Both the position numbers and the translations under genes were made by a program. Shown here in pieces: positions 1-24,980 of a stretch of 64,000 nucleotides of DNA. The stretch comes from Amphiscolops sp. MND2022 (lineage: Eukaryota), in assembly GCA_964187785.1 (NCBI GenBank), contig OZ076414.1, forward strand, positions 6,324,001 through 6,388,000. The letters run 5' to 3'. Within the stretch, counting starts at the first letter, position 1, and every line of letters begins with the position of its first letter. Under the pieces are notes generated by a model, which was not told the origin of the DNA, did not search any database, and worked only from the letters and a program-made list of their open reading frames with translations.

Positions 1-3000
1 CAACCCTTACCGTAATTCGACGAATGCTCAAAACTATTCATAGCCCCGGCGATAACAACTGCCAGAGACAAAAAGGTGGCAATAAAGATCGCCAACACAA
101 CGGATGTTCCTTATACAATGGCTGCAGACACCAAGATAGCCGACTTGCAAATCCTAAAACTAGAAGAAACGAAATTGATCCGCCTAGTTGCCATAGCTGC
201 ACTCAACCTTCTCACAGAACATGACGATGTAGCAACGTACATTAACGCACTAATGCAAGTAGAGCGAGCCGAAAACAATGAAGAAGAAATCCGGTTCCCA
301 ACCCCAGAAAATCCTGGAAATGAGCTAGAACACTCGCCCATCCAGAAGAGAACCCTAAAAGAACTACGAGCACTGGCCGACCTTGAAAATCTTGACCCTA
401 CTGCAAATGAAGAATCACGCAACAAAATTTTCTCAATCTTCAAATGGACAGTTTCACTAATTACGGAAAAGGACAGGACCGTGACAGACTAGAAGGCACA
501 ATTGTTGAATTCAATGACATTTTTGCTCGCCACCGACTAGATTTCGGAATGAATACGCAATTCAAAGTTAGTCTAACCCCCAAGACGACGAACCGGTATA
601 CAGACAGAGCCTACCAGTCCCAATTCGACTCAAGGAAGACCTAACAGTGGAACTGGCCTTCATGGATAGTGCGGCATAATCACGACACTTCCAGTCTCCA
701 GTATGCCAGCCCTATCTTCGCACAACGAAAACCCAACGGCAAGCTGAGACTATTGGTGGATCTGCGCAAGATCAACGCACTCATCGCAGACGACTACATC
801 AACAACAACCACCCTGTCAGCACCCTCTCAGATGCGACACAGCACCTAGCAGGGGAAAAATTGTTCTGCAAACTCGACTGCTCCCAGGAGTACCACTGTT
901 TACAAATGGCAGATCAAAGGTCAGTAGAGTTACTTGCTTTTATCCTCGCTAGTAGGACGTTTGCCTATCGCTGCCTGGCACAAGGACTAATTAGAGCCCT
1001 ATCAGCCTTTTCGAGCTTCATGCGTGAGTACCTGGACTCGGTCATCAATGCATATCAATGCGCACAATATGTCGACGATATTGTGCGCATTGCCACAAAC
1101 ACAACAGAACAACTAATTAGGAACAACAGAGCAGTTTTCAAGTGCATCAGAGAAGCAGGGTTAAAGCTAACCATCGAAAATTAACTTTTTTGGGTCACCT
1201 AAATCGAATTTTTGGGAAGAACCATCACCCCTGACGGAGTAGCCCCGCAAGATCAAAAAGTCAAAAACTTTCTCTCCAAGGTCCACTTCCCCAAGTCCAA
1301 AATACAAGTTCAAAAACATATTGGCTTCGTCAACTACTATCGCAACTACATACCCCGACCGTCAGAAAAACTTATCGGTATGTACGACTTCCTCCAAGCT
1401 GACTCAAAAATCAGAATTTCGGAAGAACTTGTAGACAACTTTAAAGAAATCAACGCTAGCCTGTCGGAAGCTTGTGGACTCGCACTCAGACAACCCATAG
1501 CAGGGAAACAGTACGTCCTAATGACGGATGCCAGCTTCCGCGCATCTGGATCTGCCCTCATGATTGAAGAAAAAGACGAACGCAAAGTGCACTCCAAAAG
1601 AAAAACTTTTGCACCCGTAGCGTTTGGATCACGTGTTTTCTCGCCAACACAGCTAAAGATGTCAATATAATGCAAAGAATTTTTGGCAACCTATCACGCT
1701 TTCCTAGAGTAGAGCCACATCCTATGGGAGACAACAATACCGACACTAGTCCTAACCGATAATCGCTCAGTGACAAGATTCTTCCAAACAAAGACAACGC
1801 CGCCTGCACTATGGAATGCCTGTGACTACGTGCTCCAATTTAAATTCCGGATCATGCACGTAGCACGCTCCCAGAACACAGCAGCAGATTTCCTCTCAAG
1901 ACTAGAACTCACTTCAAAAGAAAAGGTACAACTGAAGCTAAGGGACGATATCCTAGCGTCACCAATCGAAGTCAATTTACAATCGTCAGAGGTAGCGGAC
2001 GAAGAACAACTTTTCTTCCTCACGGATGAAGAAGAAGATTCTAAACACAAAATATTTGCCAGGAAATCACTCAGCAAGCAACGTGGCATAAACGACTACG
2101 AAAAAGATTTGTCAACAAAAGTAACTGAGACCGTCAAATTACCACTCAATTCTGCAGTTTACTCTTTCGGAGCAATCAAGGAAAATGCAAGGATCAGAAA
2201 TGAGCAAGATGCGGATCCTCTCCTTAAAGCATTGAAACTACGGATATCACAGGAAGAAAATGACAAGCACCTCCTAAAAACTGAACCAAGAGGACGAAAT
2301 CTACTACGACACGGAGAAAGAATCATAATGAAAGATGGAGTCCTAATGCGAAAGTACTACGGAGAAGACGGGTCAGTCACGCATAACCAAGTCATAATCC
2401 CGAAACACCTAGTTCCAGAGCTCTTGCCCACACTGCACGGAAAATAAACACACATCAAGCAATTACCAAAATTATAAAAGAATGCAGAGCGAAATACTAC
2501 TTTCCAGGTCTTGCACGCAAAATCAGAGCCTGGGTAACCAGCTGCCCAGACTGTATTGCCAACAAACGAATCGACAAGAGACAAAAACTCCCCAAGATGC
2601 TGAGCAACACTGAATTTACTATACGACCAGAAGACTGTGTGGAAGTGGACATACTACCGAATCTGCCTTCATCAAATGGCTATCAACACGTCGTCACGAT
2701 GATGGACGTCTTCTCACGTTACCTTTTGCCTACCCGACACAAGACATGACAACAAAAACCGTGGCACGATGTATAATCGATGTAATGACACGACACTGAT
2801 ACCAACCAACCGTCATCTTAACGGACAAAGGGTCACGGTTCAGATCGGAGGTAGTCAGTCAAATAGCTCAAACACTCGACATACGGATAAACCACGCATC
2901 GACGAAACATGCCCAAACAATTGGCATACTAGAAAGGTTTAACGTCGCCCTAAAAATTTCCCTCAAAAAATCAACGGTAGAGAGACGTTCAATGTGGCAC

Positions 3001-3975
3001 AAATATGTCCAAATCGCAGTCATGAACTACAACACAAGCTATCATGAGAGCTTGGTCTCTGAACCTACAACAGTGTTTCACGGACGCTTTCTGTACGATA
3101 TCCAAGACATCAAACTTGGATTAAAGTCAGTATGGAAAAAAGACAACAACGAAGAACTAACGGTCGAACTGCAAAAACAAATCGCTGAAATACATCAAGC
3201 TGCTAAAACAACCTGATGCAATCCTATCTCAAGTACAAACAGTACTGCGACGCGACAAGAAGGCGACCGCCACACCACTCAAAGTCAACGACTACTGCTA
3301 CGTTCTGAATCCGAAAGCGGACAACCAGTCGATGAAATTTGCTTTCAAAGATTTCATTTGGACTGGCCCTTATGTGGTAGTCAAAGTCCTCTCGAACAAC
3401 AACTACGTCGTACGTCGAACGGGCACATGATAAACGCAAACCCTCCATAGAATTTGCCTAAGGCTATATTCGCCCAATCTGTGAGTACCTGACGAAACAG
3501 TCAGAAGGGAAGATTACCTTCCAGATCCAGAGGTTAAAACAGCCCACAATGATTGGTACGCGCAAGCTTGGGAAACCGAATTCGGAGAAGTTTTGCCCGG
3601 AAACACAACGGAAAATACAACAGAAGAAGCCTCAGTTACAGAAATTGCGGACAATATAGGAGATCACGCAACTACAACGGGTAATGAGGTAAAACAGTCA
3701 GAGTCGAATTTTCTGATGGGGATAAAACATCCTCCGACACTGTTACGTCATTCAATCTGGACGTCAGTGATAATCCCTATTTTTTGACTCCACCGCCTAT
3801 ACGAGGCCCCCCCCCCCCAAAAAAAACTTCTGAACAACCCCCTATAGTTGTTGGATACACTCCTAGGAAAGTAGGAATATACAACTTGCGACCTAATCCG
3901 AGACCTAATGTAAACCCTGACTTCAGAATGCTCGACTCAGTTACTACACAAGACGCACGTAAAACTCAGCAATAA
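1..3975 (+). pseudogene. pol: Gypsy pol (protease-RT linker, RT, RNase H, integrase, C-terminal tail), frameshifted
   Basis: RT motifs LLVDLRKIN, LDCSQEYH, YVDD (669-1184). RNase H TDAS...VAFGSR (1212-1670) and NTAADFLSR. Integrase VDILPNLP..DVFSRY, TDKG, GILERFN (~2620-2950). YNLRPNP tail near 3880. Confidence 0.93.
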
Positions 3976-4326: not shown

Positions 4327-5322
4327 TTAGTCTTTTTTGGAAACAAAACTCACGTTACTTCTCGTCTCCGGCCCGGAAGCCCCCACGTTGGCACGAGCAA
4401 GCCTCCTAGTTTTATCGCACTGCACATAATATGCCTCGGAAGATTCGCGACGTTGCAGCAAGAACGCACTGTATAGCCGCTGATAGTTAGCAACAAAGGA
4501 ATCCACAGCAGGGTCACAATAATGTTTCCAGACTTTAAACCCAGGAGTAACGTAAAATACGCCAGCATCCACAATAGCATCACGGACAATACCATCATCT
4601 AGAGTCAAATCAGTGAAGAATAACTGGTGTTCATACCTCGCACTCATCACGTAGGACTTCACTAATCGTAGACAGCACTGGTAAATAGCTTCACTCAAAG
4701 AATTCCCACTCAGATCAAAAAACACTGCAGGATAAGTTATACGAGGCAAATCAATGATGAGGCAACACAACTTCAATTCACGGCAAGGTTCCGGACGGGC
4801 AGTAAAAGTAAAATCACGGAGCAGGTATTGGACAATATCCGGAACCTCACTGGCATTAACATCTGAGCCCACGTGCTGCATTCGCTTCTCCACAACGTAA
4901 TTACTGAACTGCGCAACAGCGACATTTGACTCATAAGAAAATAACACCCCACACGTAGCCAACAACTTTGTGAAATCAGCAAACAATGAGAAGACTGCAT
5001 GCTCGACACCCTCCAACAGAATCTCAGGACTGAACCTACAAAGCCCCTTCGTAACTTTCGACGACACACTGGGATTGTTCAGCACAACTGTAACCAACTG
5101 GTCCGAAAAGACACGGCAGTGAGCGCGAAATTCCTGGCCTGCAGTCGTTTTCAACGCAAGTAACTCGCGCCCAAAATCACAGTTATCCAAGAAAGTAACC
5201 ATTGCAACAGCAGGATAGACAGAATCTTTCAACACATCCATGTAGTCCTCCCAATCATGGATACCAGGCAGCGATGACGGTACGCGAGTTTTCAGCAGAG
5301 TTTTCAGTATACAAAAGGACAT
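4327..5322 (-). CDS. Antisense accessory protein of element 1, unknown function (331 aa; probably continued by the basic 4140-4346 segment after a frameshift)
   Basis: Open 331-codon frame with globular composition, lying downstream of and opposite to pol. Confidence 0.7.
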   Translation of the reverse strand: MSFCILKTLLKTRVPSSLPGIHDWEDYMDVLKDSVYPAVAMVTFLDNCDFGRELLALKTTAGQEFRAHCRVFSDQLVTVVLNNPSVSSKVTKGLCRFSPEILLEGVEHAVFSLFADFTKLLATCGVLFSYESNVAVAQFSNYVVEKRMQHVGSDVNASEVPDIVQYLLRDFTFTARPEPCRELKLCCLIIDLPRITYPAVFFDLSGNSLSEAIYQCCLRLVKSYVMSARYEHQLFFTDLTLDDGIVRDAIVDAGVFYVTPGFKVWKHYCDPAVDSFVANYQRLYSAFLLQRRESSEAYYVQCDKTRRLARANVGASGPETRSNVSFVSKKD

Positions 5323-8099
5323 ATCTCACTGTATCCTTGAAACCCGTAATCACTCCGCTGCTGACGCATCTTCCCGAAATTGAAATGAACTAAAACAACA
5401 TCGAAATCACAGAACGAAAAGAAGAGCCACGCTAATATCACAACAGAAACGCAATCCAAGCACTACGAACATTAATCGAACCAAACAGAAGCAAGCACGA
5501 ATAACCAAAATATCATACTTACAAGTATCAAGGACAAACCACAGCAGGCCAAAACGCTGCACGATCATATTATTGGCAATTAAATGCCAATCTGTCACCA
5601 ACATCTAGAGAAAACACACACACATATATAGCGAGAACGTCCACACCCGTTGAAGTATACACTGTGACTAGTTCTAAAACAAACAATAGTCGTTACAACA
5701 GGACTCAAACTTAACTCAATTTCACAGCGAGAGTTGAATATAGAGTCAGTTCAATTTTAAAATTCAGGTTATTTGACTTCCAGTTTTGTTGAAGTTTAAC
5801 TCGAGGTACGGAGGTTTTTTAAGAGGTTACGACTGTTATCAGAGTGTTTTTCTCAGGAATCGCTCTACAGTTTATCTGTGTTGATATCGTTTTAGCAAAA
5901 ACGTTCTCCGTCTCAGGATCGGAGTCTTCTACTTCTACCTTCTGGGTTTTTTCGTAGCTGGCGCTATTAGTGTTCTGCATTTGTTTTTGGTTCTCGACTA
6001 CAATTTTAGTGAGGTCAGACAGGATTTCAGGATTAGACAGGACTCCTGATAGACATTTTGATCTCGTCTAGATTTTCAGGATGAATTCTAGGTAATGTGC
6101 TCGGACCTGCTACGAGACCTTCGACAAATTATTCTGAGCTATTGGAGTTTCTAGGCTTTTTGACTTAAAATTTTACATGATTTTTCCTATTCAAACTTTC
6201 CTATGTATCATAAAAATCTAGTTTGTTCACCAAAAAGCCCTGTTGATATATATCATTTCAGTCCTGCGTCCCAAATTCAGGTATCAAAATTCCTAGTGGC
6301 GGCACTCATTCGGCACACCTTTGTTGAAACGTTATTGTTCATGTAAAAACACTTCTTGTTTGGACTATAAAAAGGCGGCAAAATAAAAGTCTTCTTAACA
6401 TTTTCATCGACGAGAGCACGCCGTCATGAACAATTATTCAATTTACCAGTTGGGAGTTTTAAAAAGATTAGGTACAAAAAGATGACTAGCAAAAAGGGTC
6501 ATGCAAGTAGAACGGAGCGAGTAATACTAGTTATCGAAAACACTGAATTATTAATGGAAAGGAACATATGATGCTCGAAGAACACAGTGTTTAAATACAT
6601 GACTTACTTGTCAATACACTTTTTTGTAGTTGTACACTTTTTTATTGAAAACATTAACGTAAATTCAGGTACAACGTGAGCTTAACGGGAATAACTCAAT
6701 GTTACAAACAGAACAGCATCAAAATAAAAAGCACAGTTAGAATTAGTGATTGAGAAGATGATTCAACGTAATAGTTTCAAATTTCGACTTGAGAACTGTA
6801 GAAAGTTATGTGAGCAAAATCTTAGAGTTAACAATTTTGTAGTATCATTGATGCAAATTGTGGAAGGATCAACGTATTATGAACAGAGAGGTAAGAGTAG
6901 ACCTTGTGGTAATTAGCGCATTTCATTCAGGTGGTAAAATTCAAGATTGTTATGCTTAGTATTGACAACGATGACCTTGCGTTATATTCCTCAGAATACT
7001 TTCTAGATGCTTCTAAAACATTGTCTCGAAACATACTTTTGTGATTTGCGATAGACAACTGATTTAATCAATGTGAGGTCATCGTATTTTGTAGTCAAAA
7101 CTCAATCATCCTTAGTGTAAAGATTAATCCTACAATTGACCTTACAGCACAACTTTTGTTGAACAAGATCACGTTTGGAAAACTTTTATATCTCATTTTT
7201 TTCTGAGACAAAATTCCTACTAAATTACGTTTACAACCTTAATTTTATGGCTACAGTTTTACAATCGCTCCGTAGCATCTCCCTGTGTATTCATATTAAC
7301 TATAGCTGACCAGCGGTTGATGGAGGCATTACATTGAGCAGCGGAGTGCATTTTCACAATTTAGCTAGTGACGTGACAAAATCGTTGTTATTGGCTTGAG
7401 CACAAATCTCTCAACCGAGAAGTGAAGCTTTTGGTCCGTTAAGTTGTCATTATAAGGTATCAATTAAAATACTTATTTTGTTGGGATGATTACTTGTATT
7501 TTAGACATATATTTTGAAACCGGGATGCGAAGTACTTTCTGAAGACTCTAATAGAGGTGCAAAGTTAGGTCTTTAGAAAGTGGTGCAATTTGATGAAAAC
7601 TTTATTAGAGTTGTAAAGGATTATAAATCAGATAAGTGCTCTACAGTATAAAGTATGATATCGTATATAAATTCGATACAGCTAAATTCATGATACAGAA
7701 TTCAAGTCTAGACATTCAATAAAAGGGTGGCGGTGTAATGACCGAATATAAAAGTTTAGGCCTATCATCCGACCGGGTGTTGACAAATTTTGAAATTGAC
7801 TTTCAGCAAACTGCATACTTATGAAGAGGGGGCAATTAATTGTACGAATGAATATCTGAGTTTCATTAAACATGTCGAGTCGGGTTTAATATAATGAAAG
7901 AGTTGGCTTTGAAGTTTGGAAGAGTTAAAGAGGATAGAAAAAGATTTTTAATTGCATTTCTGAACTAGAACTCAACATTGAGTTGTATGTTGAGTTTTCA
8001 TCAATTTGTATTTAGTCACTCTTTCCGTAAGTGACTCTCGGCGAACATGCAATTTTTAGCTTGAATCTGGTTGAAAGAACGGAGTTGAGTGTTCAAATT

Positions 8100-10300
8100 C
8101 TATACTAAGACAGAGTGAGGTTCAAACAAGTATATGGATTTGAGTAATTTTTGTTCAATTTTTGTTTTGTTTTCTAAAGAAAGAGTTTTTGTTGGGAAGA
8201 ACGAGTTTTTTTGAAAAAAATCAATAACATGAATTGTGGAGAGTGTCAAGGTTTGAATATCACTGCTATGTAGCTGGAGAAGCTTTTGAAGATTGCGATA
8301 CGTGTCGAAAATATAGTTTAGAATGACAAAGGGATCAGTAGTGGGAGAAAGATCAACATGTGGGCGAAGAAGATATAAAATTTCAGTGACAAACTTTCCA
8401 GTTGGACAAGAACGGAGTTGATGCACACCTTAGGATTGACCGTTTGTAGGCCATATGGAGAAGGAGGTCGTTGAATGAAAACAGGCGGAGGTACGGTTGT
8501 CAGTTCAAAATTTTTAGATGATGGAACAGTTTCAGGAAGAGCTTTGTTCTTTCAATCGGGAATATCATTGGTAGCAGGGAAATATTTCTATTGTTTTTTT
8601 CAAAACGAAGTAGAAAGTGTAGCGACTATAAAGTTTAATTGTGCAATGGAGTGTTTATGTACAAGGGAGGTAAAGTTGGAGCAAATGTAGTCATCAAGAG
8701 GAGAATCGACCAGTTTATTCATTTTGCAACACGGGCAGAAAATTGCAACACTATTAGGAACATGAGTGGGTAATAAGAAATCGTCCTTTCAATTTAGAGC
8801 TTCTTGAGGAACAAAAAGAGGACGGGTAGAGTTGTGATACGGAGCGAGGATATAATGATGTTTAACTGGTTCATAACTACGAGGTATGCCATTGGTGTAG
8901 AGATGATTCAAATAGTTGTGAGAATGATAAAAGAAAAGTGACCTGAATTTTTGATTTTGAAAGATAAATTTGGGGTGTTTTTGTTCAAGGAAGTGATGGT
9001 AAGTTTGGTGATGATGTTTTTAACCAGAAGGAGCAGTAGTAATACCGTTTGGGTTAGTGTTAAGTACATATTGAGTTGGTTTTGTGAAAATAAATTGGAA
9101 ATGAGAAAAGTGGATACGTTTGTTTTGCCAAAAGGCGAGATTTTTTTAGTGTTAGGAGGCGTAGGCAACATAATGAACGAAGTTACGATATTGTAGAAAT
9201 CTGAATTTTTATGTGATTGTGATTTCTTAGTGTTATAAATAGAGAAGGAAAATAAGCTTTTAAATTCGCATGAGTGCGGAAGAATTCATCAGTCATAGTA
9301 ATAGTTTGAGAAGGATTTATTACAGGCTGGAGTACAAGAGGTAGATTACTGGAGTCAATGAAAACAGTATTTTCAAGACAAATCTTAGGAGGGACAGTGT
9401 AGGTGACATTATCAATAGTTACTTGACGATTAGTAGGCGGAGGAGTGAGCGAATGACGAGTTTCAAGAATACAAGAGGTGGATTGAGCATGTACAATGGA
9501 AGTATGGGTGGAAGAGGAAGTTTAAATATCACTTATCGTAGGTTCAGGAGTGGAGATGATTTCCAGATAAACTGGAGCAGAATTATGAGAAAGTTCAAGA
9601 GTAAAAAGATGGAGAGAAAGAGGTGGTGACGCAGAGGCAATACTAGAGGGAAGTTTTTACATTGCAAGCAGGTGAAGCCATTTTCAAACAAAGATAGCAG
9701 TTGAAATATTGTGAGAAAACGTATAGTTTACACAATTTTTTTAATGAATTGTATGGAGTGTTATAGTGAAGTTGGACTGTGAAAAGTGAAATTATACAAG
9801 TCAGTCGAAGGGGTTATAGTGGCATGAAGTATAGGTGATCAAAAAATAATAGATCTTTGATAGCAAGACATGTTGAAAATAAAAATAGTACAAAGATGAA
9901 TAAATTTTTTGCGAAATGAATATTTGAGAATTGAAATCGAGTTTGGCGGTAATGAAGGAGCAACTGAGAGATGAAAAAATCTGGAGAAAAGTGATGAAGT
10001 TTACAGAAGAAAGAGACTTAAGTTTATTCAGGTGAAAAGCGACAGGATGAAAAACTAATAACGAGACCTTCGGGTTGATTAAATATACTATTGACAGATG
10101 ATAATGGAAAGTAAATAATTTTCATAGATTGTGGAGTAGGAGGATAATGTTTTGTTGATTGTCATACATTGTGTATGGGCGAATTATTGGAGGATTAGTC
10201 AAAATTAGTGTCATCAGGAGAAATAAAAATATGAAAATAAAAAGGAAAAGACATTGAAGGTATTGGGGATGACGAGGAGAAAGGTTATTAGGAGAGTTGT
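8100..10300 (-). pseudogene. Fourth ORF downstream of env, unknown function (~700 codons, decayed)
   Basis: Chain of minus-strand protein-like segments joined by stops and frameshifts, ending ...PTTDPFVILNYIF...FEPHSVLV at 8100. The start is approximate. Confidence 0.55.
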
Positions 10301-10419
10301 TGTAAGAATTATAAATCGGAGGAGGGTGTGAATTGTTTTCAATTAACTGAGGAGTTGTAGTATAAGGGTAAGATTGAAAACTATTAGTAACGAAGAAGTT
10401 TTCTTGATGAAGACCTTTG

Positions 10420-12703
10420 CATGTTTTTTTTTAGTTTTAAGATTCAAAAATTTGGATTTAAAATTAAGATTATATTCAATATTTTTAGAATGTTTCAACT
10501 TCGGGTTGACAGTATATTTAGAATGAGGAGGCGAAGGTGTATCAGAAGCATTAGAATCAGAATTATAATCAAGAGATTTAATCATAGCAGTCATCAATGT
10601 TTTTGTTACGCTTCCAAAAAATCCGTAGCCAAGAGCATAAATGAGGGAGAATAATTTTTCTTTTAGAATTTTTTTAACTGTGAAAGAGCGATATAAACAA
10701 AGGAAGGTGTTGAAAGCAAACTGTAGGAAGAAAGCAGTGGAAAAAAATTTCACATTAGGTTAAAAAACAACATGGGTAGCCAACGAGTTTATTGAAAGCA
10801 TCGGTGAATCATTCCGGTGTAAGAAAGGGAGTTAAGTTTAACATGTAGTCATGAAAACAGACTTGACGAGAGTTGTAGGGTTCATTTGGGAGGAGTTCAG
10901 ATGATTGTTTACTCATCAATTCATAACTAAGAGCCTTACCAAGAAGTTTTAGGGAATTATCAGAATGTTTGGTCAAGAGAACACAATTCCAAAAATTTTT
11001 GAGATCTCTTTGAGAATAAACTTCTGCATCTCGAGCAGTGAAAGTGTTTGGGCTAATAGCGGTTTGAACTTGAGTGGGTTCAAAGATTAGAGGAGGGTCC
11101 TTTTTATTAGGTTGTGGAGTTGAGACATAATACTGATCGGTGTCAGGGTCAAGAGCAATAACATTATGTGGGTTGGTTTGGCATGGTATTTGATTAGCAT
11201 ATTCAAATGTTTGACGAGTAATAGGGTCAACACACATAACAAAATCAAGGTATTTAACAAGGATTCTGGCATACCATTGTTCAGCTATACATAAAGGAAT
11301 GTGATGGTGAGGACAACCATAAAGCCACGCAGTTGAGCCTTCGACGTAATGAGAATTGTTATAGTTTTGAGTTAAGTGAAAACCAGCGACTTTTGGATTA
11401 TTAACAGATATTGCAAAACTTCACAAATAGCATGGAGGGTGTTAAGTTCCGCAACTGACATTGTTTTGAAAACATGATGAATGAAGAAGTCTATTTTAGT
11501 ATTTATATGAGCTTCACAATCATTAGTGGCAAAATTGTTGAAGGAGTTAAAGCAGGAAAAAGGATTTTATTTTGCGTATGAATTAATTTACCAGAAAATA
11601 ATTGGGTGGAGAGTTGAGTATATGGTTCATCTTCAGGTAATTGAAGGGGGTTACGATTACCAGTATGCGTATTAAATCCTTCTGTATATGTAAAAAAGAG
11701 ATCAGGGTTTTGACTGGTACATAAAGGTGTGGGTTTATTTATTTTACGTCCGAGGAACATTTCGAAACGACTTCAAACGAGTTGAGTTTTAGATTTAGAG
11801 TCATGATAAATAGTTTCAGGAGGAACATTGGTTTTATTGTTATTTGAAAAGTGTTCGTTTTTGAGCCAATAACGGTTATTAACATTAGACATACGTCCAA
11901 TAAAGAAAGAATAAAAGAGTCCTTCGGAGAACCAGACAATGGTGAATGGGATAGAATAGCAGGTTTGAAGAGACCTTAATCATGGCGGCAAGGTAAAGTG
12001 TGTCCATGATAAAATAATTTAATCTCCTTGTCATCATAGGCTAATTCCATATCTCGAACAAATAAAGACCAACTATAGTTTTCAACTATATACTCATGTA
12101 CTCATAGCAGTCCCAACAAACAGCTTTTAAAACAATTTGAGAGTTTGTTTTTTAAGCAAAACCACAATAGTGAAAATTGTTGAGTTTAGTTATACGGGAA
12201 GTTGTTTGGTTTCAAGGAGGCGTCGTTTTTGAATATCATCAAAAGAATTGAAGGAGTTGCTATATTCAAAAGCATTAGATTGAGGATTATCAGTTCCCTT
12301 CTGGTGACGAATAGCATATTTGCATTCCGTTGGGTCCAAAGAACGAGGACGTTCCATTGTATTTTGATGATAATCTGTACGATCATGACGATGGTATTTA
12401 TAACCGGATTGTGCACAACCAAAACTTTTACGTTCAACATAAGCTTCACGGACAAACACTTTAGCAAAAGCACGAGTGCTTTCTAAAGTAGAAGGAGCTT
12501 TAGCACAAGGTTTTACTCGAGTTACACTCAATTAACGGAGGATATGATGTTTAGTGCATTCATAGTGGAAATCCAGTAGGTCAGAAATGTGAGATTCTTT
12601 GGGTTCTACTATATCAGCAGGGGAGTCCAGGGAAATAATGATGAGAGTGAAATATTTCAGAAGGAAGAAAAAAAAGAAAAAGGAGTTTGGATGAATGTTT
12701 CAT
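10420..12703 (-). pseudogene. env: Envelope glycoprotein, probably class III (herpes gB / chuvirus G-like)
   Basis: Signal-peptide-like MKHSSKLLFFFFFLLKYFTLIIIS at 12703. Cys-spaced ectodomain (FHYEC, RVKPC, GCAQSGY, LDPTEC, GSTAWLYGCPH, VDPITRQTFEYANQIPC). Hydrophobic TM region at ~10680-10790. Confidence 0.8.
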
Positions 12704-14599
12704 GAGGAGAATTGTTGCAATTGGGCAGTGTAATTCAAAATGTGAGCATGTTTAAGAAATTAATGAAACCGTGAAGACGGAACGGATGGTGATCACTAAC
12801 GAAAAGACTATGATTAGTAGCAATGAAAGGATGTGGTATGGATTAAAATTGACTGTATTGTGAGACGGACTTATTTGTGGACTTAAGTTGTGAAATTTAA
12901 CAGCGATTTAACGTTTCTTTTCAAGACTTGTAGTATCGAGTCTTGGAAATTCTTTTCGACGACGTCCGTCAGATATTTGAGTATAAGAATGTATTTTATG
13001 AGTTGCAAGATATAAGAATCAAGGATCTTGACGTGGACTAGAAACAAGAGAAATGGGGTATCAGTGGAATCAACACGATTATGTGTAGGTAGGGTAGAAT
13101 ATTGATCAGTGGTAATGTCAATATTCAGGAGGAGGGAATCCGAAAGGAGAACACTGTGAATTGGAGAACTGGGTCGCAAAAACAGCTCTCCGGATTGTTC
13201 ATCAGATGAATTAGAAGAGCGTTGCAAAAAGGCGGAATCAAGACCAGAGGTTTGAATATTTTCGTGAGCCAAAACAGAATCGGATGAACGAGGTTGAGCG
13301 TGGTGTCTCACTAAAGAGGAGTTTTTGCTTGCAAGAAAAGGCGTAGGGCTACGGTTATATCTAAGATTATATCTTCGACGTGGAGGCCTCCCAATAGTAG
13401 ATTCAGAAGAGGCTTCTAAAAGATTATCCAAGGAAGAAATGTTAAACATTATGAAGGTGGAAGAGGAGGACCAGGATCAGAGTGTTTACAGGGTTGTGGA
13501 AGAGGGAGTGGGGGATCAAATTGAGAGTGTCTACGACATCCTTTAATGGAAGTAGGTACTAAGATTGGGTTACGAGATTGAGCTTTGTTAAAATTTCTTA
13601 GGAGTATTGGGTCAATATCACCAGGATCAAGAATATGAGATTGATGTGGGGGAGAAGGAGAATGAGTAGGGACGACATCAAATGGAGTTGAAGGGAATTC
13701 AGTATCAGAGTGTGGAAGAGTTTAAGATGTTTGGGGTTTTAGAATAAAAGGAGTTTTAGTTGGAGTTAGTGTATGAGTACGAGTACGAGTAGTATTTGAA
13801 GAAGGAGTGACAGGACTTGCATTTGAAGGAGGGCGATCTAATATGAGACAAGATGTCTAAGAGGAATTTGTAGTATCAGTAGAAACTATTTAGACAACAG
13901 AAGAACTAGTGTCTGTAGAACTGGAGGATAAAGGAACCGGGGGATCCAGAATGGAAACAAATGTTACGAAAAATATAAATAGATTTTAGCGGCATGCGCA
14001 AGATAAGTATAAGTACAGTTTTAAATAGATAAAGAATTTTTGTTTCAATCGATGGTAGATGTTAAGAGTATATAAAGTTCAGAACAAAAAACGGAGTTTT
14101 TTTCAGCGTTATTTCTTAACCGACTGTTCAATCAAAGATTATGAACAAAATGAACAGAGGATAATTATGGAAATGGGTAAGTAGAGTGTGGATGTCAAAT
14201 GGCAGGCATTTTTATGTGTCTGAACAAAAGACAGTTCATTGATAGTCTGACAGGTAATGCCATTCGGGAGTTAATTTTACATTAAGGGGAGGAACCAGAT
14301 AATGGGCTTTGAGTTATTGTAGTCTTTCGAGGGAAGAGACGTGAAATATATAGCGAATGAAGAGAATATGAGTGGGTAATGTTTGATAGTCTGGTGACGA
14401 TTCAAAGAAAAATTTGGGAAATCAGCAACACGTGGAAAAGTTTGCGGAACGAACTTGGAATGATAAGTAGGATTTTGGAGAGCAGTTCAAAATCAGAGTC
14501 TAAAGAGTTGAAAGTATCATCTAGATTATCATCTAGAGAATTGGAAGGAGGAAGGTTTTGATAGGTAGGAGGAGGATGTAAAATCAATTTGGACTAAGC

Positions 14600-15900
14600 A
14601 CTTGTTTTAAGAGAGGTGTGCGGGCTGAAAGATTTGAAAGGAGGCATACTCAAATTGAGTTGATTTAGAATGAGTATCTTGATAGGAGTCAGTATCAGGA
14701 TTATTGGGAGGAGAGGTAGTTGAGTGATATTGACAGAGAAATGAGAAGATATTCGGTTCTTTGCGATAATATGGTAAAATATGATTGCGGTGTGTGTGAC
14801 ACGTAGAGCCATCTTGGGCCATACGTTCATAAGTAACATCAGATAGTTGTTGAATTTTTTGTATGGGCCAAGTCGGAGGGGTTTAAGTTAAGTTTAGAAT
14901 TTAACATGTTCAAAACTGGATTACAACAGTGTTAAAGTTTCAAATGTGGAGTTTTGTGGATTCAGTTTATTGAATAAATGCCGATGAACGGTGGTGTAGA
15001 GTTCTAACCTTTGCATGTTCACCTGATGAAGCCATGAGGAAATATGTTTGTTGATGGCTGAATGGAAAAAGGGATTGAGATTTTGGTCACTACAATTGGC
15101 ATAAGGTCAAAGTGAATGATCATATGTTGCAATACTTTAAAGTTGAGAGAAAAGGTTAATGGAATACGAGGGTGTGTATGAAAAACATATTGAGATGGAG
15201 AATGTTTAAGTTGAGAAAGGAAGTTGTATTGTCAGAATAGGTGTACATTTGAGTTTGGAATGACCAATTAGTAGGACGAATTTGTAAAAAACTAACGGCG
15301 GTGAGTTTCAAGGCTACGATTTTGGACTTCGAGCAAACCGTTTGTCCAAAAAATTTATGGATTGCGTGGATAGTGACTAAAATTAAAGAGAGAGCAAAGA
15401 TGGGCCATATCTTGATTAGTGTTTTCAGTACCGCAACCAGTGACGAGATACTGGGGTGGTCCAAATTCAGTAATCCAAAGATGGAGTGGTGTTTGAATAG
15501 CATCTTTAGAAGAAATAAGAGGAGAAGGGTTAGTAACACCAAAGTGACTAAAAGCATCAATGATTACAAAAATATAGGAGTTTCCTTGTGAGGAAGGAGG
15601 AAAAGGTCCTTCAGTGTCCATAGAGATTGTACAATTAAAACGGCACTTCCAAAAAATGGTAAAAGAGGAAAATATTAGTTGATTTAATAAGAAAATGATT
15701 ATTCGTTTGGCATTCAATACTATCATGAATGGAAATAGAGAACCATAAAGGTAAATGAGGAATATAATAAAATTGATTGAGAGTTTTAATAGAGAGTTTT
15801 CACCGGAATGACCATGTGAATGAGTTTTATCAAAAGCAGCATAAAAGAGTTTAAATGGCGAACAAATGCGAGTCTGGCAAATAGAGGGTTGAGTTTTTAT
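14600..15900 (-). pseudogene. pol: Integrase of element B
   Basis: ISMDTEGP..YIFVIIDAFSH..FGPPQYLVT core (15355-15726) and C-terminal THRNHILPYY segment; the second catalytic Asp is lost. Confidence 0.88.
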
Positions 15901-16699
15901 TTAAAAAATATCAAAAATTCTGGCGTTGGGTGTATAGTATTGGATAAGATGTGAATTTGTGTCAATATAAAATGTTGGAATTTCTTGTCTCATGTATAAA
16001 GAAAACAGTTAGCTTTATTAACTGGAGCAAAAGGGTATGTTTTTGTTTTTGTTGAAGCCATTTATAAACAGTGGGAAGAACAGGATCATCTCCTTGAGCT
16101 TGAAGGAGAATAGGTATTATTAAAAAGGTATCAGATGGGAAAAAGTATTCAAAAGCTTTGCAATGAGCAATGGATGAATCGAAAAATGGTGAATAGGATG
16201 AATTGAAAAATGGTGAGGTGGAGGTAGATTCAATAAGAGTTTGTAATATGACATGAGTGTGACCAGAATCATCAGAGTTGGGAGATAAGGAGTTAGTGTA
16301 ATATTGATTAGGATATCTCGGGAAAGGTGAGAGTCATTAAAATTTTAGTATTGAATTTCAGAGAGGGGCTGTAAAAAATACGGGATGGTGATTGTAAATT
16401 TTGTTGAAAACTATTTTTAGGAATCATCAACTTCACACAAATCAGTTTCGTGTAAAAGAGAGTTTTGTTGAAGCAATGTTTTGACTTTCTTTCTTATAGG
16501 TTTTTTAATATTTGTTCGAAAAGGATGATCCGGATACAAACAAAAATGAATCTAAAGGAGTGTAGGTGACAGTGTTACATTTATCTTAAATACCAAGCGT
16601 AAATTGATTATCATCGTAATCAACGTCATCAACTAAAATTGGGTGTCAGACATATTTTTGTGTTGGCAAAACTAGATAGTGAGTTTGTATTAACGAGTT

Positions 16700-18757
16700 A
16701 TTGGGTTTGAGTTGAACAAATTCAATATGTGGAGGACGTGTTCTGTGTTGTCAATTGCTCATTGTACTTGTAATTTGGGAAAACTCTTGACTGAGCACAT
16801 CAGCAACAGTTAAATTAGTACCTGCAGTATGAATAATTTGAAGATATTTGATAACATTTGAGCTATACTTCGTCTTGGTGTCAGGTTTCATTTACGGGTA
16901 AAGAGGATTGCATTTGATTATCGGTGTTGGATTGAAATAAAATGGCGCCTAGACCAATAAGAGAGTCGTCAACTATAGAAATGGTGAGTGGTACAGATTG
17001 TATGTTCAGCATCGTTTGAAAGAGAAGTTTCAAGTCCGTGGAAGAGTTTGTCCAATTCACGAGTGCATTCAATTGAAATATATTCATGAAGGAAAACATA
17101 AAGGGGTTGAGTGAGATATGAAGTTTGTTTATAAATTTAGAGTCGAAGTTCATTGAACCTTAAATCGCATTAGTTCTGTTTTAGAAAATGGAGTTTTGAA
17201 TTGGTGAATGCCGTCAACTTTAGAGGAGATGGGTTCAATTGAATTATTGCCAGTTTCATGTCCTAAAAATTTGACAGTAAAAAGAATATATAATAACTTT
17301 TCAGTTGCAATTTTAGAATTGTTGGAACTACGTAATTGGTGCAATTATTTAATTAAATCTAACACATGAGTTTTGATATGAGCAAAAAGAAGGATATCGT
17401 CAACATAAACAAGTGCATTGCCTTGATCAAGGAATTTTTGAAAAAGTGATTCCATTTGTTTCGGAAATAAATTTGGCAGTCCTTTAGGATCATAAAATAC
17501 TCGAAAAAGTTCGTAAAGTTTCGTTCCCGAAGAGAAACTGGAAAGAGAGATGGTTCCGTTATCTAAATCGGCATGTGCATAAGCACACATGAGAGCAATT
17601 GGATATTTGAAGTTTTTGCTAGCGCGTGCAAGTTGGGGAGCTAAAAGTTCAAGTGGCAAGTATCAAAGGATTGATCGGTGTTAGAGTTTAAGTGCCGAGC
17701 GTCAAGGACGACATTAATTGTGTCTCCATTACAAAAATGAAGAGCGGATTTCAAAGGTTGTACCGTAGATCGATTTATCAGAGGGAGTGGAGCCAATTTG
17801 TTTCATAAATTTGTGGTTTTCTATTTCATCTAGTGGCTTTTTAAGTTTCTCTCTATGATGGATAGGGACTTTGGTAAGCCTTTCAGTTTGAGGTTAAGCA
17901 TTTGGTTCGATACTAATTCTAAAAGGAGTGGCCGTTTTACCAACGTCATTACGATGTAGCATAGCAATGTTGGTGTTTAATCAAAATAGCGCAGAGTTTT
18001 TAATGTTCATTATCATTGCCGTCCGAGTATTAAAACTTAAATTTGTTTAAGAGTTGTTGAACTTCTGGAGAGTACTGTAAAGAACGAAGAGGACGGTTTA
18101 AAAGTTGAGAAGGTTTTAGATTATTTATTTCAGTATTAGTTCTTCTAATAGAAGAGCGACGAACAGAAGGTTTTGGTTCTGAGAGATCTGGGTAATATGT
18201 ATGGAATATAGTGTGTATTAAAGAAACAACATCAATAATTTTGTAGTGTGGTGGTTCAATATTAGTGGCAAGAACTTCAATTTAACCTATTTATCCTGGT
18301 GACAAGATAGCTGAATGATGAGTAAATTTTTGAATTATAACAGAGCAGGTCTTCAATTTTGGTATTTTGGTAAACTTGGAGAACGTTAAAGGTGGGGTCA
18401 ACGCGAGTATTAAAATATGGATGTGAAGTTGAGGGAAAGATAATATCATTTTAGGAGGTTGTGAAGGTTAAAGGAAGAGTAGTTTCGATTGGGAAATGAA
18501 TAACTTGAGAAGCGTTGGGTGTTAAAACAGTTTTGTTTTTAACTTTACTTTTGTAAATGTTAGATAAATATGGGTCAGCTTTTTTCGTCTTTTTTAAAGA
18601 GCAGTAAAAGGAAGAGTATTACCATGAGATTCATGAGGGGTATTAAGTGTAAGATACATGTGTTCAATGTTAAGAGCTGTTACATATTTTTCGAAGAAAG
18701 GATTTCCAATTATACTACATTTATTGATTGCAACTGCAATCGGAATTACAAGAGTCC
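16700..18757 (-). pseudogene. pol: Protease end, linker, RT and RNase H of element B
   Basis: RTLVIPIAVA..IIGNPFFEK near 18740; LAPQLARA..YAHA..ALVYVDDILL (17345-17659); DDSLIGLGAILFQ (RNase H). Confidence 0.88.
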
Positions 18758-19010
18758 TGGTGTGAGGATTCCTTTACGAGTGAAGAGCAAACGAATAGGA
18801 TTGTGATATGTGAAAACAGTGCTTGGGTTTCTAGATCCAATGATAATAAATCCAAATAGAGCAAAATTTATAGCACAAAAATCTCGTGCTGTAGAAATTT
18901 GTTGTTCTTGTGTTGTCGAAATACGAGCGTTGAAAGATACAACTTGCATTTTCTTATCCGTGTTGGGTTGAAATAAGATGGTACTGAGACCAATTAGAGT
19001 CACCAGTATT

Positions 19011-22000
19011 ATAAAAAGGATGAGTGGTGTTAGAAATTGCAAGTTCAGCATCTTTTGAGAGAGAAGTTTTAATTTAATTGAAGAGGTTGTCTAATTCAGG
19101 CGTCCACTCAAATGAAACATCATCATCAGAGTAAAAGATCATTGAACCAATAAATCGCATTAGTTCAGGTTTGTAAGTGGAGGATTTCGATTTGTGCATA
19201 CCACCGACTTTAGAGCAGATGGGTTCAACCGTATTATTGTCAGTTTCATGTCCATGAAATTTGACAGTGAGCAGAATATAAAATGATTTTCCGCGGCAAT
19301 TTTTAGATTGTTGGAGCTACATATTTGGTGTATTTGTTCAATTAAATCCAACATATGAAATTTAATATGAGCAAAAAGAAGGATATCGTCAATATAAACA
19401 AGTGCAGAGCCTTGATCATTGAGTTTTTGGAAAAATGAGTACATTTGTTTAGTGAAAAAATTGGAAGTCCTTTAAGACCATAAAATCCTCGAATAAAGGC
19501 GTAAAGTTCATCTCCTGAAGATAAACTAGTAAGAAAAATGGATTCTTTGTCTAATGGGGCATGTGCATAAGCATACATGAGATCAATGGCGGATTTATAT
19601 TTTGTTAGCGCGTGCAAGTTGAGGAGCTTGAGGTTCAGAAGTCCAAGGTTTAACGGATTGATCAGTGTTAGAAGTTAAATGTCGACCATCAAGGTTGACT
19701 TTAATTGTGCCTCCTTTAGGGATAATATTGAGTGGATATAAAAAAGTTTTACCATTTATGGATTTATCAGAGGTAGTGGAGCCAACTTGTCTAATATTTT
19801 TGTGGGTTTCTAATTCAACGAGTAGCTTCTTAAGTTTTTCTCTATACTGAGTACGGACTTTAATAGGTCTTTGAGTTTGAAGTTTAGCATTTGGCTTGAG
19901 GCGAATTCGAAAAGGAGTAGCTATTTTATCACCGTCATCACGATGAGTAGCATAGCAGTGTTGATATTTAACTAAAATGGCGCAGAGTTTTGAATATTGA
20001 TCATCAGTGACATCAAAGTATTGAAATTTAAATTTTTTGAGGATTTGTTGAACATCTGAGGAGTATGGTAAAGAATTAAGAGGAGGGTTTAAAAGTTGAG
20101 AAGGTTGTAGATTATTATTTTTAAAATATTAGATTTTTTGACAGGAGAACAGGGGGTTTTGGGAGAGATCGGGGTAGTATGTGGGAAATATTGTTTGTAT
20201 TGAAGAGTTAACATCATTAACTTTATTGTGTGGTGGTTTAATCTTAGTGGCAGGGACTTCACTATAGCTTATATGTCCTGGTGCGAGGATGGCTGAATAA
20301 TAAGTAATTTTTTGGATTATAACAGATCAACTATTGGGTTCAATTTCAGTGTTTTGGTAGACTTGGAGGATGTTAAAAGTGGAGTTTAGGCGGCTATTGA
20401 AATATGGTTGTGGAGTGGAAGGAAAAACAATTCCAATTTCAGAAGTTGTGAAGGTTCAAGGAGTAGTAGGTTGAATCGAGAGGTGAAAAACTTGAGAAGA
20501 GTTAGGTTTAAAGTATATTTTGTGTTTAACTTTTATTGTATAAATATAAGAAAAATATGGGTAGCATTTTTCTTTATGTGCGGTAATAGGAACAATGTTG
20601 ACATGAGATTCATGAGGTGTATTAAATGTAAGAAACAAGTTGTCAATATTTAGAATTTTAACACATTTTTCAAAGAAGGGAGTTCCAAGTTCATTGATTT
20701 GATACTTGCAACTGCAAGGGGAACTAAAAGAATGAGAGTACTTCCATGGATGGAGGTATGAAGTGTGAGAAAACATTTGAAAAATTTAGCACCTTCAGCG
20801 TTTTTGGCTACTGTTAGGGTTTTAGGCTCATTATTTGGAGGAATGGATGTTGAATATTTGACGAAGTGATCCTGTAATGTTGTGAAGGTGGGTAAAGTTA
20901 AAACACAAATGGAGGCACGCTGTCAAGCAGGAATAAGAGTTCTACCTTAGAGGGCAAAGAGGTGTCTTCTTGTTGTTTGAAAATGTATAGTAATATGTAT
21001 AGTAATATAAAAAGGATGAGTGGAGTTAGAAATTGCCAGTTCAGCATCTTTTGAGAGAGAAGTTTTAATTTAATTGAAGAGGTTGTCTAATTCAGGCGTC
21101 CACTCAAATGAAACATCATCATCAGAGTAAAAGATCATTGAACCAATAAATCGCATTAGTTCAGGTTTGTAAGTGGGGGTTTTCGATTTGTGCATACCAC
21201 CGACTTTAGAGCAGATGGGTTCAACCGTATTATTGTCAATTTCATGTCCATGAAATTTGACAGTGAGCAGAAAATAAAATGATTTTCCGCGGCAATTTTT
21301 AGATTGTTGGAGCTACATATTTGGTGTATTTGTTCAATTAAATCCAACATATGAGTTTTAATATGAGCAAAAAGAAGGATATTGTCAATATAAACAAGTG
21401 CAGAGCCTTGATCATTGAGTTTTTGGAAAAATGAGTACATTTGTTTGGTGAAAAAATTGGTAGTCCTTTAAGACCATAAAAACCTCGAATAAAGGCGTAA
21501 AGTTCATCTCCTGAAGATAAACTAGTAAGAGAAACGGATTCTTCATCTAATGGGGCATGTGCATAAGCTTACATGAGATCAATGGCGGGTTTAAATTTTG
21601 TTAGCGCGTGCAAGTTGAGGAGCTTGAGGTTCAGAAGTCAAAGATTTAACGAGTTGATCAGTGTTAGAAGTTAAATGTCGACCATCAAGGTTGACTTTAA
21701 TTGTGTCTCCTTCAGGGATAATATTGAGGGGATATAAAAAAGTTTTACCATTTATGGATTTATCAGAGGCAGTGGAGCCAACTTATCTAATATTTTTGTG
21801 TTTTTCTAATTCAACGAGTAGCTTCATAAGTTTTTCTTTATACTGAGTACGGACTTTAATAGGTCTTTGAGTTTGAAGTTTAGCATTTGGCTTGAGGCGA
21901 ATTCGAAAAAGAGTAGGTATTTTATCACCATCATCACGATGAGTAGCATAGCAGTGTTGATATTTAACTAAAATGGCGCAGAGTTTTGAATATTCATCAT

Positions 22001-24980
22001 CAGTGACATCAGAGTATTGAAATTTAAATTTTTTGAGGAGTTGTTGAACATCTGAGGAGTATGGTAAAGAAGGAAGAGGACGGTTTAAAAGTTGAGAAGG
22101 TTGTAGATTGTTTTTTTTAATATTAGATTTTTTGACAGGAGAACAGGGGGTTTTGGGAGAGATCGGGGTAGTATCTGGGAAATATGGTTTGTATTGAAGA
22201 GTCAACATCATTAACTTTCTTGTGTGGTGGTTTAATCTTAGTGGCAGGGACTTCACTATAGCCTATATGTCCTGGTGCGAGGATGGCTTATTAGAAGGTA
22301 ATATTTTGGATTATAACAGATCAACTATTGGGTTCAATTTCAGTGTTTTGGTAGACTTGGAGGATGTTAAAAGTGGAGTTTAGGCGGCTGTTGAAATATG
22401 GTTGTAGAGTGGAAGGAAAAACAATTCCAATTTCAGAAGTTGTGAAGGTTCAAGGAATAGTAGGTTGAATCGAGAGGTGAAAAATTTGAGAAGAGTTAGG
22501 TTTAAAGTATAGTTTGTGTTTAACTTTTATTGTATAAATATAAGAAAAATATGGGTAGCATTTTTCTTTATGTGCGGTAAAAGGAACAATGTTGATATGA
22601 GATTCATGAGGTGTATCAATTGTAAGAGACATGTTGTCAATATTTAGAATTTTAACACATTTTTCAAAGAAGGGAGTTCCAAGTTCATTGATTTGATACT
22701 TGCAACTGCGAGGGGAACTAAAAGAATGAGAGTATTTCCATGGATGGAGGTATGAAGTGTGAGAAAACATTTGAAAAATTTAGCGTCTTCAGCATTTTTG
22801 GCTACTGTTAGGGTTTTAAGCTCATTATTTGGAGGAATAGATGTTGAATATTTGACGAAGTGATCCTGTGATGTTGTGAAGGTGGGTAAAGTTAAAACAC
22901 ATATGGAGGCACGCTGTCAAGCAGGAATAAGAGTTCTACCTTAGAGGGCAAAGAGGTGTCTTCTTGTAGTTTGAAAATGTATAGTAATATGTATAGTAAT
23001 ATAAAAAGGATGAGTGGAGTTAGAAATTGCCAGTTCAGCATCTTTTGAGAGAGAAGTTTTAATTTAATTGAAGAGGTTGTCTAATTCAGGCGTCCACTCA
23101 AATGAAACATCATCATCAGAGTAAAAGATCATTGAACCAATAAATCGCATTAGTTCAGGTTTGTAAGTGGGGGTTTTCGATTTGTGCATACCACCGACTT
23201 TAGAGCAGATGGGTTCAACGGTATTATTGTCAATTTCATGTCCATGAAATTTGACAGTGAGCAGAAAATAAAATGATTTTCCGCGGCAATTTTTAGATTG
23301 TTGGAGCTACATATTTGGTGTATTTGTTCAATTAAATCCAACATATGAGTTTTAATATGAGCAAAAAGAAGGATATTGTCAATATAAACAAGTGCAGAGC
23401 CTTGATCATTGAGTTTTTGGAAAAATGAGTACATTTGTTTGGTGAAAAAATTGGTAGTCCTTTAAGACCATAAAATCCTCGAATAAAGGCGTAAAGTTCA
23501 TCTCCTGAAGATAAACTAGTAAGAGAAACGGTTTCTTCATCTAATGGGGCATGTGCATAAGCATACATGAGATCAATGGCGGATTTAAATTTTGTTAGCG
23601 CGTGCAAGTTGAGGAGCTTGAGGTTCAGAAGTCAAAGATTTGACGAGTTGATCAGTGTTAGAAGTTAAATGTCGACCATCAAGGTTGACTTTAATTGTGT
23701 CTCCTTCAGGGATAATATTGAGGGGATATAAAAAAGTTTTACCATTTATGGATTTATCAGAGGCAGTGGAGCCAACTTATCTAATTTTTTTGTGTTTTTC
23801 TATTTCAACGAGTAGCTTCTTAAGTTTTTCTTTATACTGAGTACGGACTTTAATAGGTCTTTGAGTTTGAAGTTTAGCATTTGGCTTGAGGCGAATTCGA
23901 AAAAGAGTAGGTATTTTATCACCGTCATCACGATGAGTAGCATAGCAGTGTTGATATTTAACTAAAATGGCGCAGAGTTTTGAATATTCATCATCAGTGA
24001 CATCAGAGTATTGAAATTTAAATTTTTTGAGGAGTTGTTGAACAACTGAGGAGTATGGTAAAGAAGGAAGAGGACGGTTTAAAAGTTGAGAAGGTTGTAG
24101 ATTGTTTTTTTAATATTAGATTTTTTGACAGGAGAACAGGGGGTTTTGGGAGAGATCGGGGTAGTATCTGGGAAATATGGTTTGTATTGAAGAGTCAACA
24201 TCATTAACTTTCTTGTGTGGTGGTTTAATCTTAGTGGCAGGGACTTCACTATAGCCTATATGTCCTGGTGCGAGGATGGCTTATTAATAGGTAATATTTT
24301 GGATTATAACAGATCAACTATTGGGTTCAATTTCAGTGTTTTGGTAGACTTGGAGGATGTTAAAAGTGGAGTTTAGGCGGTTATTGAAATATGGTTGTAG
24401 AGTGGAAGGAAAAACAATTCCAATTTCAGAAGTTGTGAAGGTTCAAGGAATAGTAGGTTGAATCGAGAGGTGAAAAATTTGAGAAGAGTTAGGTTTAGAA
24501 AATAGTTTGTGTTTAACTTTTATTGTAAAAATATAAGAAAAATATGGGTAGCATTTTTCTTTATGTGCGGCAAAAGGAACAATGTTGATATGAGATTCAT
24601 GAGGTGTATCAATTGTAAGAGACATGTTGTCAATATTTAGAATTTTAACACATTTTTCAAAGAAGGGAGTTCCAAGTTCATTGATTTGATACTTGCAACT
24701 GCGAGGGGAACTAAAAGAATGAGAGTACTTCCATGGATGGAGGTATGAAGTGTGAGAAAACATTTGAAAAATTTAGCGTCTTCAGCATTTTTGGCTACTG
24801 TTAGGGTTTTAAGCTCATTATTTGGAGGAATGGATGTTGAATATTTGACGAAGTGATCCTGTAATGTTGTGAAGGTGGGTAAAGTTAAAACACAAATGGA
24901 GGCACCGCTGTCAAGCAGGAATAAGAGTTCTAGCTTAGAGGGCAAAGAGGTGGCTACTTGTTGTTTGAAAATGTATAGTA
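19011..24980 (-). repeat. Three tandem ~1995-bp copies of the protease-RT segment (19011-20992, 21007-22986, 23001-24980)
   Basis: Homologous ORFs recur at offsets of 1993-1996 bp. Both junctions carry the same (ATGTATAGTAAT)x2 at 20983-21006 and 22977-23000. Confidence 0.97.

Follow-up and report, generated by a model that had tools for sequence, protein, structure and literature searches.

Does the cysteine-rich membrane-protein gene that lies downstream of a retrotransposon pol in this DNA represent the envelope gene (env) of a Ty3/Gypsy element, to which class of fusogen does its product belong, and what could it have done while the element was alive? We addressed these questions in a 64-kb window (the whole stretch of Amphiscolops sp. 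MND2022 DNA that was analyzed), where the feature sits in a G-skewed block from ~7 to 29 kb with all genes on the minus strand. From 5′ to 3′ on that strand, the block contains the following features.

28556–28994 (about), minus: env relic with an internal deletion, from a more distant member of the family (local matches to P0003, dN/dS)
28220–28513, minus: 5′ LTR-like repeat with an undefined upstream end (76.5% identity to 7461–7751 over 298 columns, E 1e-56)
28204–28221, minus: candidate primer-binding site (PBS), beginning with TGG, directly after the 5′ LTR-like repeat
25000–27213, minus: gag-like decayed ORF (codon-model z 6.0 for 26000–27220)
18758–24980, minus: three ~2-kb units in tandem, each with protease, RT and partial RNase H, from a sister element (96–98% alike, 74% to the env-proximal unit)
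14286–18753, minus: env-proximal pol pseudogene with RT, RNase H and integrase with a GPY motif, without a protease of its own (tblastn of P0206/P0207)
12883–13960, minus: decayed Ser/Thr/Pro-rich extra ORF between pol and env (z 8.6; 197-aa open piece at 12883–13476)
10024–12703, minus: env pseudogene of a highly probable class III (gB/chuvirus-G-like) fusogen (alignment to P0003, PF24664, P0003 fold)
Parts of env, minus: signal peptide, ectodomain, TM region near 10780–10670, Pro/Ser-rich tail, PPxY at 10322
10809–11420, minus: longest open env piece, 203 aa, containing VDPITR (PF24664 E 4.9e-7, 28.5 bits, cut-off 27)
8000–10000, minus: decayed extra ORF(s) after env and before the 3′ LTR-like repeat (z 5.9; P0024 match at 9133–8795)
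7461–7751, minus: 3′ LTR-like repeat (the other member of the repeat pair, without coding signal)

The broken env reading frame is opened by an ATG at 12703 on the minus strand, and the window sequence itself reads as a signal peptide, a cysteine-rich ectodomain and a TM segment. The earlier note had given this start and topology, which stand, together with a length of ~760 codons, which does not. A frameshift-aware alignment to the intact relative P0003 (918 aa) covers residues 9–918 with 563 of 876 positions identical (64.3%) and yields ~893 codons, roughly 130 more, with the Pro/Ser-rich cytoplasmic tail running past 10420; because the match continues to residue 918, we place the end of env near 10024 and not at 10420. 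The aligned part contains seven stops (near 12534, 12154, 11978, 10811, 10757, 10197 and 10164) and eight frameshifts (near 12196, 12095, 11949, 11548, 11414, 10747, 10382 and 10266). One more break lies in a homopolymer run of the signal peptide, and env as a whole has at least eight frameshifts. The window copy of env is dead, a pseudogene.

Its relatives are not confined to decayed copies. A search with the 203-aa piece identified 55 relatives among 327 candidates (45–71% identity), and a full representative search with the env family returned 2,216 proteins at E up to 0.001. P0003, 70% identical to the 203-aa piece, has 424 cluster members, P0012 (911 aa) has 603 and P0019 (901 aa) has 1,758, all three figures being cluster sizes and not counts of full-length proteins. 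We aligned 34 long rows, after dropping an earlier 90-row version with fragments as too gappy. In a tree of the 23 rows of at least 700 aa, P0003, P0011, P0012 and P0019 form a long, fully supported branch; this branch is all that the tree shows, because it contains no labelled viral or errantivirus references. Fourteen ectodomain cysteines are found in 20–23 of these 23 long relatives. Nine of the 14 are retained in the window env, three are altered and two are unaligned, and the second cysteine of the motif on which the earlier note had relied (C503 of P0003) is among those altered.

The pattern of conservation distinguishes the family from the window copy. P0012 and P0019 equal P0003 at 103 of 108 deeply conserved sites and at 206 of 456–458 variable sites. 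The window env equals P0003 at 75 of 100 deeply conserved and 308 of 449 variable sites, a nearly flat profile and therefore one of neutral decay after death. These comparisons show that the env family evolved under purifying selection and was functional, and that the window copy then decayed neutrally. We infer a once-infectious lineage.

A second env sequence exists in the window, as claimed previously for 28570–28960. It is a deleted relic of ~440 nt at 28556–28994, not a gene, and matches P0003 residues 352–398 and 515–582 with an internal deletion between them. The two parts score 64 and 118 against P0003, where 15 shuffles of each reached at most 37 and 40; against P0012 and P0019, which are more distant relatives, the upstream piece does no better than shuffled sequence. 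The relic is 66% identical to the main env at the nucleotide level over 192 columns, with a dN/dS of 0.27 over 109 codons. The sequence VDPI is present in each of the two env copies and nowhere else in a six-frame translation of the window. Near the relic, the junction of LTR end and TGG is repeated on the plus strand at 29294–29333, which, judged from its sequence, suggests that another family member was inserted head to head. A near-perfect hairpin lies at 30078–30328, with two 125-nt arms that are 97% complementary and 1 nt apart.

To which class does the envelope belong? The Pfam family PF24664 (Monjiviricetes_fusion) matched P0003 (E 2.5e-27), P0012 (2.8e-22) and P0019 (1.4e-23), as well as 11 of 11 more distant env relatives tested. 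A feature search of the ESM Atlas placed clusters of viral fusion glycoproteins first, at 0.95, ahead of rhabdovirus G and herpes gB clusters. We then modeled P0003 with AlphaFold2 as a monomer from the 34 aligned rows (mean pLDDT 61.4, pTM 0.39). The model has an N-terminal helix (2–21), a beta-rich ectodomain, a 45-residue central helix (414–458), TM helices (669–706) and a disordered tail, and in this intact relative the signal-peptide/TM topology is backed by hydropathy together with the model helices. All 32 PDB matches listed by Foldseek for the model were herpesvirus gB (best E 8.8e-12), with whole-chain TM-scores of 0.15–0.24. In BFVD the best matches were to glycoproteins of chu-like, xinmo-like and related negative-strand RNA viruses (E 1e-28 to 1e-24), and by fold-search E-value P0003 is closer to the chuvirus-type G than to herpes gB. 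In VIA-align, gB ranked first (Z 9.1, rmsd 12.6, 393 aligned). Its domain IV scored Z 8.7 (rmsd 3.9, 154 aligned), the fusion and PH domains of rabies G scored 7.1, and the glycoproteins of Chandipura and Bourbon virus scored 6.2 and 5.0, respectively. Coronavirus S2 appeared in the same comparison at rank 36 (Z 4.0), amid background helices, and was rejected as a match.

The earlier note had proposed a class III envelope and a fold comparison with herpes gB, chuvirus G and rhabdovirus G; in the comparison run on P0003 all three were among the matches, and neither a class I nor a class II fusogen stood at the head of any fold list for the model, the leading rows being class III. A PDB sequence search gave no match for P0003 at E up to 10 and one chance match for the 34-row profile, and the class III call therefore rests on Pfam and folds. 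Given the Pfam match and the fold matches to gB and chu-like G, we conclude that the P0003-type env is a class III fusogen: Pfam, the ESM Atlas features and the predicted folds agree, and it is highly probable that the env family has this fold. Two points temper this call: the P0003 model is of middling quality, with low whole-chain TM-scores to gB, and the presumed first fusion loop carries charged residues in this sub-family.

How such an envelope would have worked can be proposed by analogy with what is known of class III fusogens and of Drosophila errantiviruses. The Env of a live element would be made from a separate transcript, enter the ER via its signal peptide, trimerize and be packed onto Gag particles. 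It would then drive membrane fusion without furin cleavage or proteolytic priming; a furin site (R-x-K/R-R) is absent in three of three full-length close env relatives. The particles would pass between cells, most likely from soma to germline, and after entry RT and integrase would produce a new insertion. We regard this entry role of Env in the live family as reasonably likely. Nothing here points to spread between individuals.

The main competitor, which we judge unlikely, accepts the glycoprotein as the genuine env of the element and holds that it is not, or never was, a stand-alone entry protein: it would need partner proteins as herpes gB does, or would serve budding, trafficking or receptor interference, with the element spreading mainly inside cells. 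In its favor, the loop after C105, the presumed fusion loop 1 (placed by homology and of low pLDDT), is charged and not hydrophobic in P0003, P0012 and P0019. The tail is long, and PPxY, a WW-domain and late-domain signal, is found in 10 of the 31 cytoplasmic tails compared, where shuffles predict 2.1 (three short tails omitted; the rows are related). The entry mechanism of gB-type elements is moreover called unknown in PMC13524379. Against it stand the full class III ectodomain with all 14 cysteines, the purifying selection and the aromatic residues that persist in both presumed fusion loops of P0012 and P0019.

The earlier note assigned the pol upstream of env to the Gypsy order (RT-RNase H-integrase), and the domains are indeed found in that order. 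The env-proximal pol is 67.9% identical to the first 580 residues of P0206, with 10 frameshifts and 7 stops, lacks ~55 residues of RNase H near 16905 and has a Pfam rve match on 15355–15900. The DSG protease motif is found in the sister units only, and the domain order protease-RT-RNase H-integrase is that of Ty3/Gypsy (Metaviridae). A search with a 105-aa RT piece found no relatives among 274 candidates; a second search found 3 among 322, the non-family one at 27% identity. P0206 and P0207 are 68% identical to the RT piece, and the pol relative has 493 cluster members. Both proteins carry RVT_1, RT_RNaseH, Integrase_H2C2, rve and a weak SH3_Tf2-1, which is the Gypsy order. Their best solved match is the Ty3-G Gag-Pol (E 5e-50), first among the 32 PDB sequences listed and followed by 8r0s (3e-24), foamy virus (7e-18) and MLV-type RT (about 1e-10). 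At E up to 0.1, none of the Pfam families that we take to be BEL/Pao markers matched P0206 or P0207, which matched Gypsy-type families only. Domain order and best match in the sequence comparisons thus support the placement of this pol in Ty3/Gypsy.

That the pol instead comes from a divergent lineage resembling Troyka, Odin or the spumaviruses, and thus from outside Ty3/Gypsy proper, is very unlikely; its association with this env would in that case be a new pairing. Such an origin would fit the atypical RT motifs, the RVT_1 match of the pol relatives that spans only positions 64–205 (E about 1e-14) and the 3 of 322 RT relatives with the non-family one at 27% identity. Yet the E-value of the Ty3 match is 26 orders of magnitude below that of the next solved structure, there is one Gypsy-type RNase H and a GPY-type integrase tail, and the inferred LTR end is not CG, unlike that of Troyka (PMC12440569), which together with Odin (PMC9040795) was compared as an alternative pol lineage. 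With a probable Ty3/Gypsy pol in place, the question becomes whether env belongs to the same element.

Env does not lie directly 3′ of pol, as had been described: pol similarity stops at 14286, ~1,580 nt ahead of the env ATG. We asked what fills this gap, and the stretch beyond env, by scoring each region, against 100 shuffles, with a model of codon use derived from 1,862 codons of pol. The z was 8.6 for 13960–12880 and 5.9 for 10000–8000 (0 of 100 shuffles reached either value), with env as control at 12.3. The leader, LTR and outer flank gave z of 1.2 or less, and coding signal was absent in the 14280–13960 spacer, the 5′ UTR, the LTR and the region beyond 7450. Because the plus strand of the gag region (which beat 100 of 100 shuffles) and 28560–29500 reached z of 2.7 and 3.0, respectively, we treat a z near 3 as weak evidence. 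The post-env stretch at 9133–8795 is 37% identical to residues 6–120 of P0024 (E 5.5e-16; one of 208 fetched proteins). This database protein, a rearranged relative, starts with ~120 residues of the post-env ORF and continues into the C-terminal half of a P0019-type env. The evidence for the ORF between pol and env is thus the codon test, and that for the post-env frame is the codon test and one relative, P0024. No Pfam match was obtained for the extra ORFs and gag in 21 of 21 frame read-throughs, including neighboring stretches; two weak Pfam rows for the extra ORF region (E about 0.27) were judged to be chance. Neither the extra ORFs nor gag had a PDB match, and one post-env piece was without a usable Atlas match. 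The extra ORFs are probably accessory genes, and it is a guess that the post-env ORF supplies attachment or regulation.

Pol and env are contiguous inside one G-skewed block and similarly distant from their intact relatives (68% and 64%, respectively). Their linkage is seen in this window only, because protein databases carry no genomic context. That the glycoprotein is a separate chu-like RNA virus EVE beside a Gypsy pol in a transposon nest, and no part of the element, is hardly tenable: the closest folds are chu-like virus G proteins, a 1.6-kb gap separates pol from env and Jingchuvirales glycoprotein EVEs often lie beside fragmentary Gypsy copies without clear capture (PMC10084718), but the hundreds of cluster members in three sub-families, the second relic that also abuts the same LTR-like repeat, the joining of env and post-env ORF by P0024 in another sub-family, the fit of env codon use to the pol-trained model (z 12.3) and the lack of a viral nucleoprotein or polymerase match among 47 proteins scanned all speak against it.

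The remainder of the element was assembled from more than one copy. Among the 2-kb units, dN/dS was 0.88–0.90 for unit 2 versus units 3 and 4, and 0.58 for unit 3 versus 4 (33 differences); between the sister units and the env-proximal unit it was 0.43–0.44, with no shared stops (507–529 codons). A single old, neutrally decayed duplication of all four units, plausible on 170 codons, was rejected on these 507–529. We therefore conclude that the locus combines the env-bearing element with a sister element, whose RT, already dead, was duplicated afterwards. The gag and the 5′ LTR derive from this sister element and not from the env-bearing copy; the full layout is accordingly pieced together from a chimera, and the divergence of the LTR-like repeats (76.5%) gives no date for the insertion. 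The gag-like region has no Pfam family match and contains an apparent non-coding insertion of ~600 nt (~25360–25980, codon-model z -1.6). At the element ends, neither a target-site duplication nor a polypurine tract was found by eye, and the candidate PBS 12-mer is absent from the PBS table in the available portion of PMC13524379. After the PBS candidate, the 5′ leader carries six copies of a 16-nt motif (27851–28176, spacing 52–87 nt, mostly 57), which are possible packaging or enhancer repeats.

Taken together, the locus is very likely a dead and rearranged Ty3/Gypsy LTR retrotransposon with an env gene, which corresponds to a gB-type errantivirus as defined operationally in PMC13524379. The best explanation includes the layout LTR-PBS-gag-pol-extra ORF-env-extra ORF-LTR, with a length of ~14 kb after subtraction of the duplications and the insertion. 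A further-reaching reading, which we put forward tentatively and at less than even odds, is that of a "complex" invertebrate errantivirus lineage. Its elements would be ~14 kb long and carry a chuvirus-like class III env that forms a long branch of its own and is flanked on either side by a conserved accessory gene; one of these genes might encode an attachment or activating partner of the kind that herpes gB requires. The lineage would persist as several high-copy sub-families with intact env. Its layout, and perhaps its host group, could have been missed by the published survey.

The window as a whole is a nest of mobile elements with about 27–48% GC, and no tRNA or Rfam families were found in its 64 kb. 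A Maverick/Polinton of 16.5 kb occupies 30942–47446, with 685-nt terminal inverted repeats (98%), AGTAGT ends and a 6-bp target duplication (TGCGGT). It carries genes for DNA polymerase B, integrase, a packaging ATPase and a double jelly-roll capsid, as well as a U-box + DUF4116 ORF, and interrupts a repeat that stays unbroken at about 61036–61808. A second, unrelated Gypsy pol lies at 16–3500 on the plus strand, followed on the opposite strand by an open 332-aa ORF (4327–5325, minus) with no Pfam or meaningful PDB match, which is possibly an antisense accessory gene. A further Gypsy-like element is present at 56156–64000 (minus), with an integrase match and RT DNA 67% like 673–1083, and a 2.1-kb direct repeat (99%) at 58661–60750 and 61914–64000.

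How does this element compare with known systems? The view carried over from the earlier note, that gB-like and chuvirus glycoproteins are known mainly from BEL/Pao elements, is out of date. Chary and Hayashi (eLife 2026, PMC13524379) described 1,512 intact env-carrying Ty3/gypsy elements across animals, among which F-type and gB-type env are equally abundant and widespread, and 114 gypsy elements bear the chuvirus-like glycoprotein of mosquito BEL/Pao elements. Their first filter admitted pol-env distances of up to 1,000 nt outside insects. The available text and seven supplements of that paper contain no acoel or xenacoelomorph names, and we found no publication, judged by title or abstract start, on env-bearing elements in these animals. 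A literature search, with most subscription journals and Repbase outside its scope, found no description of the P0003-type env family or of ORFs on both sides of a gB-type env. ORFs flanking a class III env on both sides are likewise not described for Oikopleura Tor3/Tor4 or bdelloid elements in the available parts of PMC4402516 and PMC5408684.

One more family of Gypsy elements with a gB-type env adds weight to the view that invertebrate retroelements regularly include class III fusogens. PMC13524379 raises the question of how such elements enter cells when they lack the partner proteins of herpesviruses, and the intact env relatives and the two probable accessory ORFs provide material to test it; of the findings here, these ORFs and the high-copy intact relatives most merit further study.

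Among known systems, Anakin, a BEL/Pao element (Dezordi et al. 2020, PMC7642597), shares a chuvirus-like class III glycoprotein on an LTR retrotransposon; however, the host element here has a Gypsy-type RT/RNase H/integrase and no BEL/Pao Pfam families. Dezordi et al. also reported no clear Gypsy capture of a chuvirus glycoprotein in arthropods (PMC10084718). With the Monjiviricetes glycoproteins (PF24664; chu-like, xinmo-like) and herpesvirus gB the env family shares the Pfam match (E 2.5e-27) and the fold, whereas identity in the fold alignments is 9–15% and the protein here is carried by a retroelement, not by an RNA virus or herpesvirus. The furin site before the fusion peptide of F-type (class I) errantivirus env is not present in three of three close env relatives here. 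Oikopleura Tor4b also has a pol-env gap, and the Tor3b/4b Env undergoes furin-type processing, unlike the env here (PMC4402516). Bdelloid rotifer LTR elements bear varied extra ORFs or ORF3s, and the env of the rotifer element is paramyxovirus-like, unlike the class III env proposed here (PMC5408684).

The closest counterparts are the gB-type errantiviruses of PMC13524379. They share with the present element a Ty3/gypsy-type pol, a signal peptide with gB-like ectodomain and TM segment, a conserved framework of ectodomain cysteines, the lack of an obligatory furin site, the occurrence in multicopy families and the gag-pol-env order, which is present here, but with a gag that has no family match and comes from the sister copy. 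It differs from them in four respects: the copy in the window is a dead chimera, ~1,580 nt separate pol from env, an extra ORF lies on either side of env and the tail has 120–200 residues. The combination of a gB/chuvirus-like env with a Gypsy element has thus already been reported across many animals, and the sequences described here apparently represent an undescribed family of this kind.
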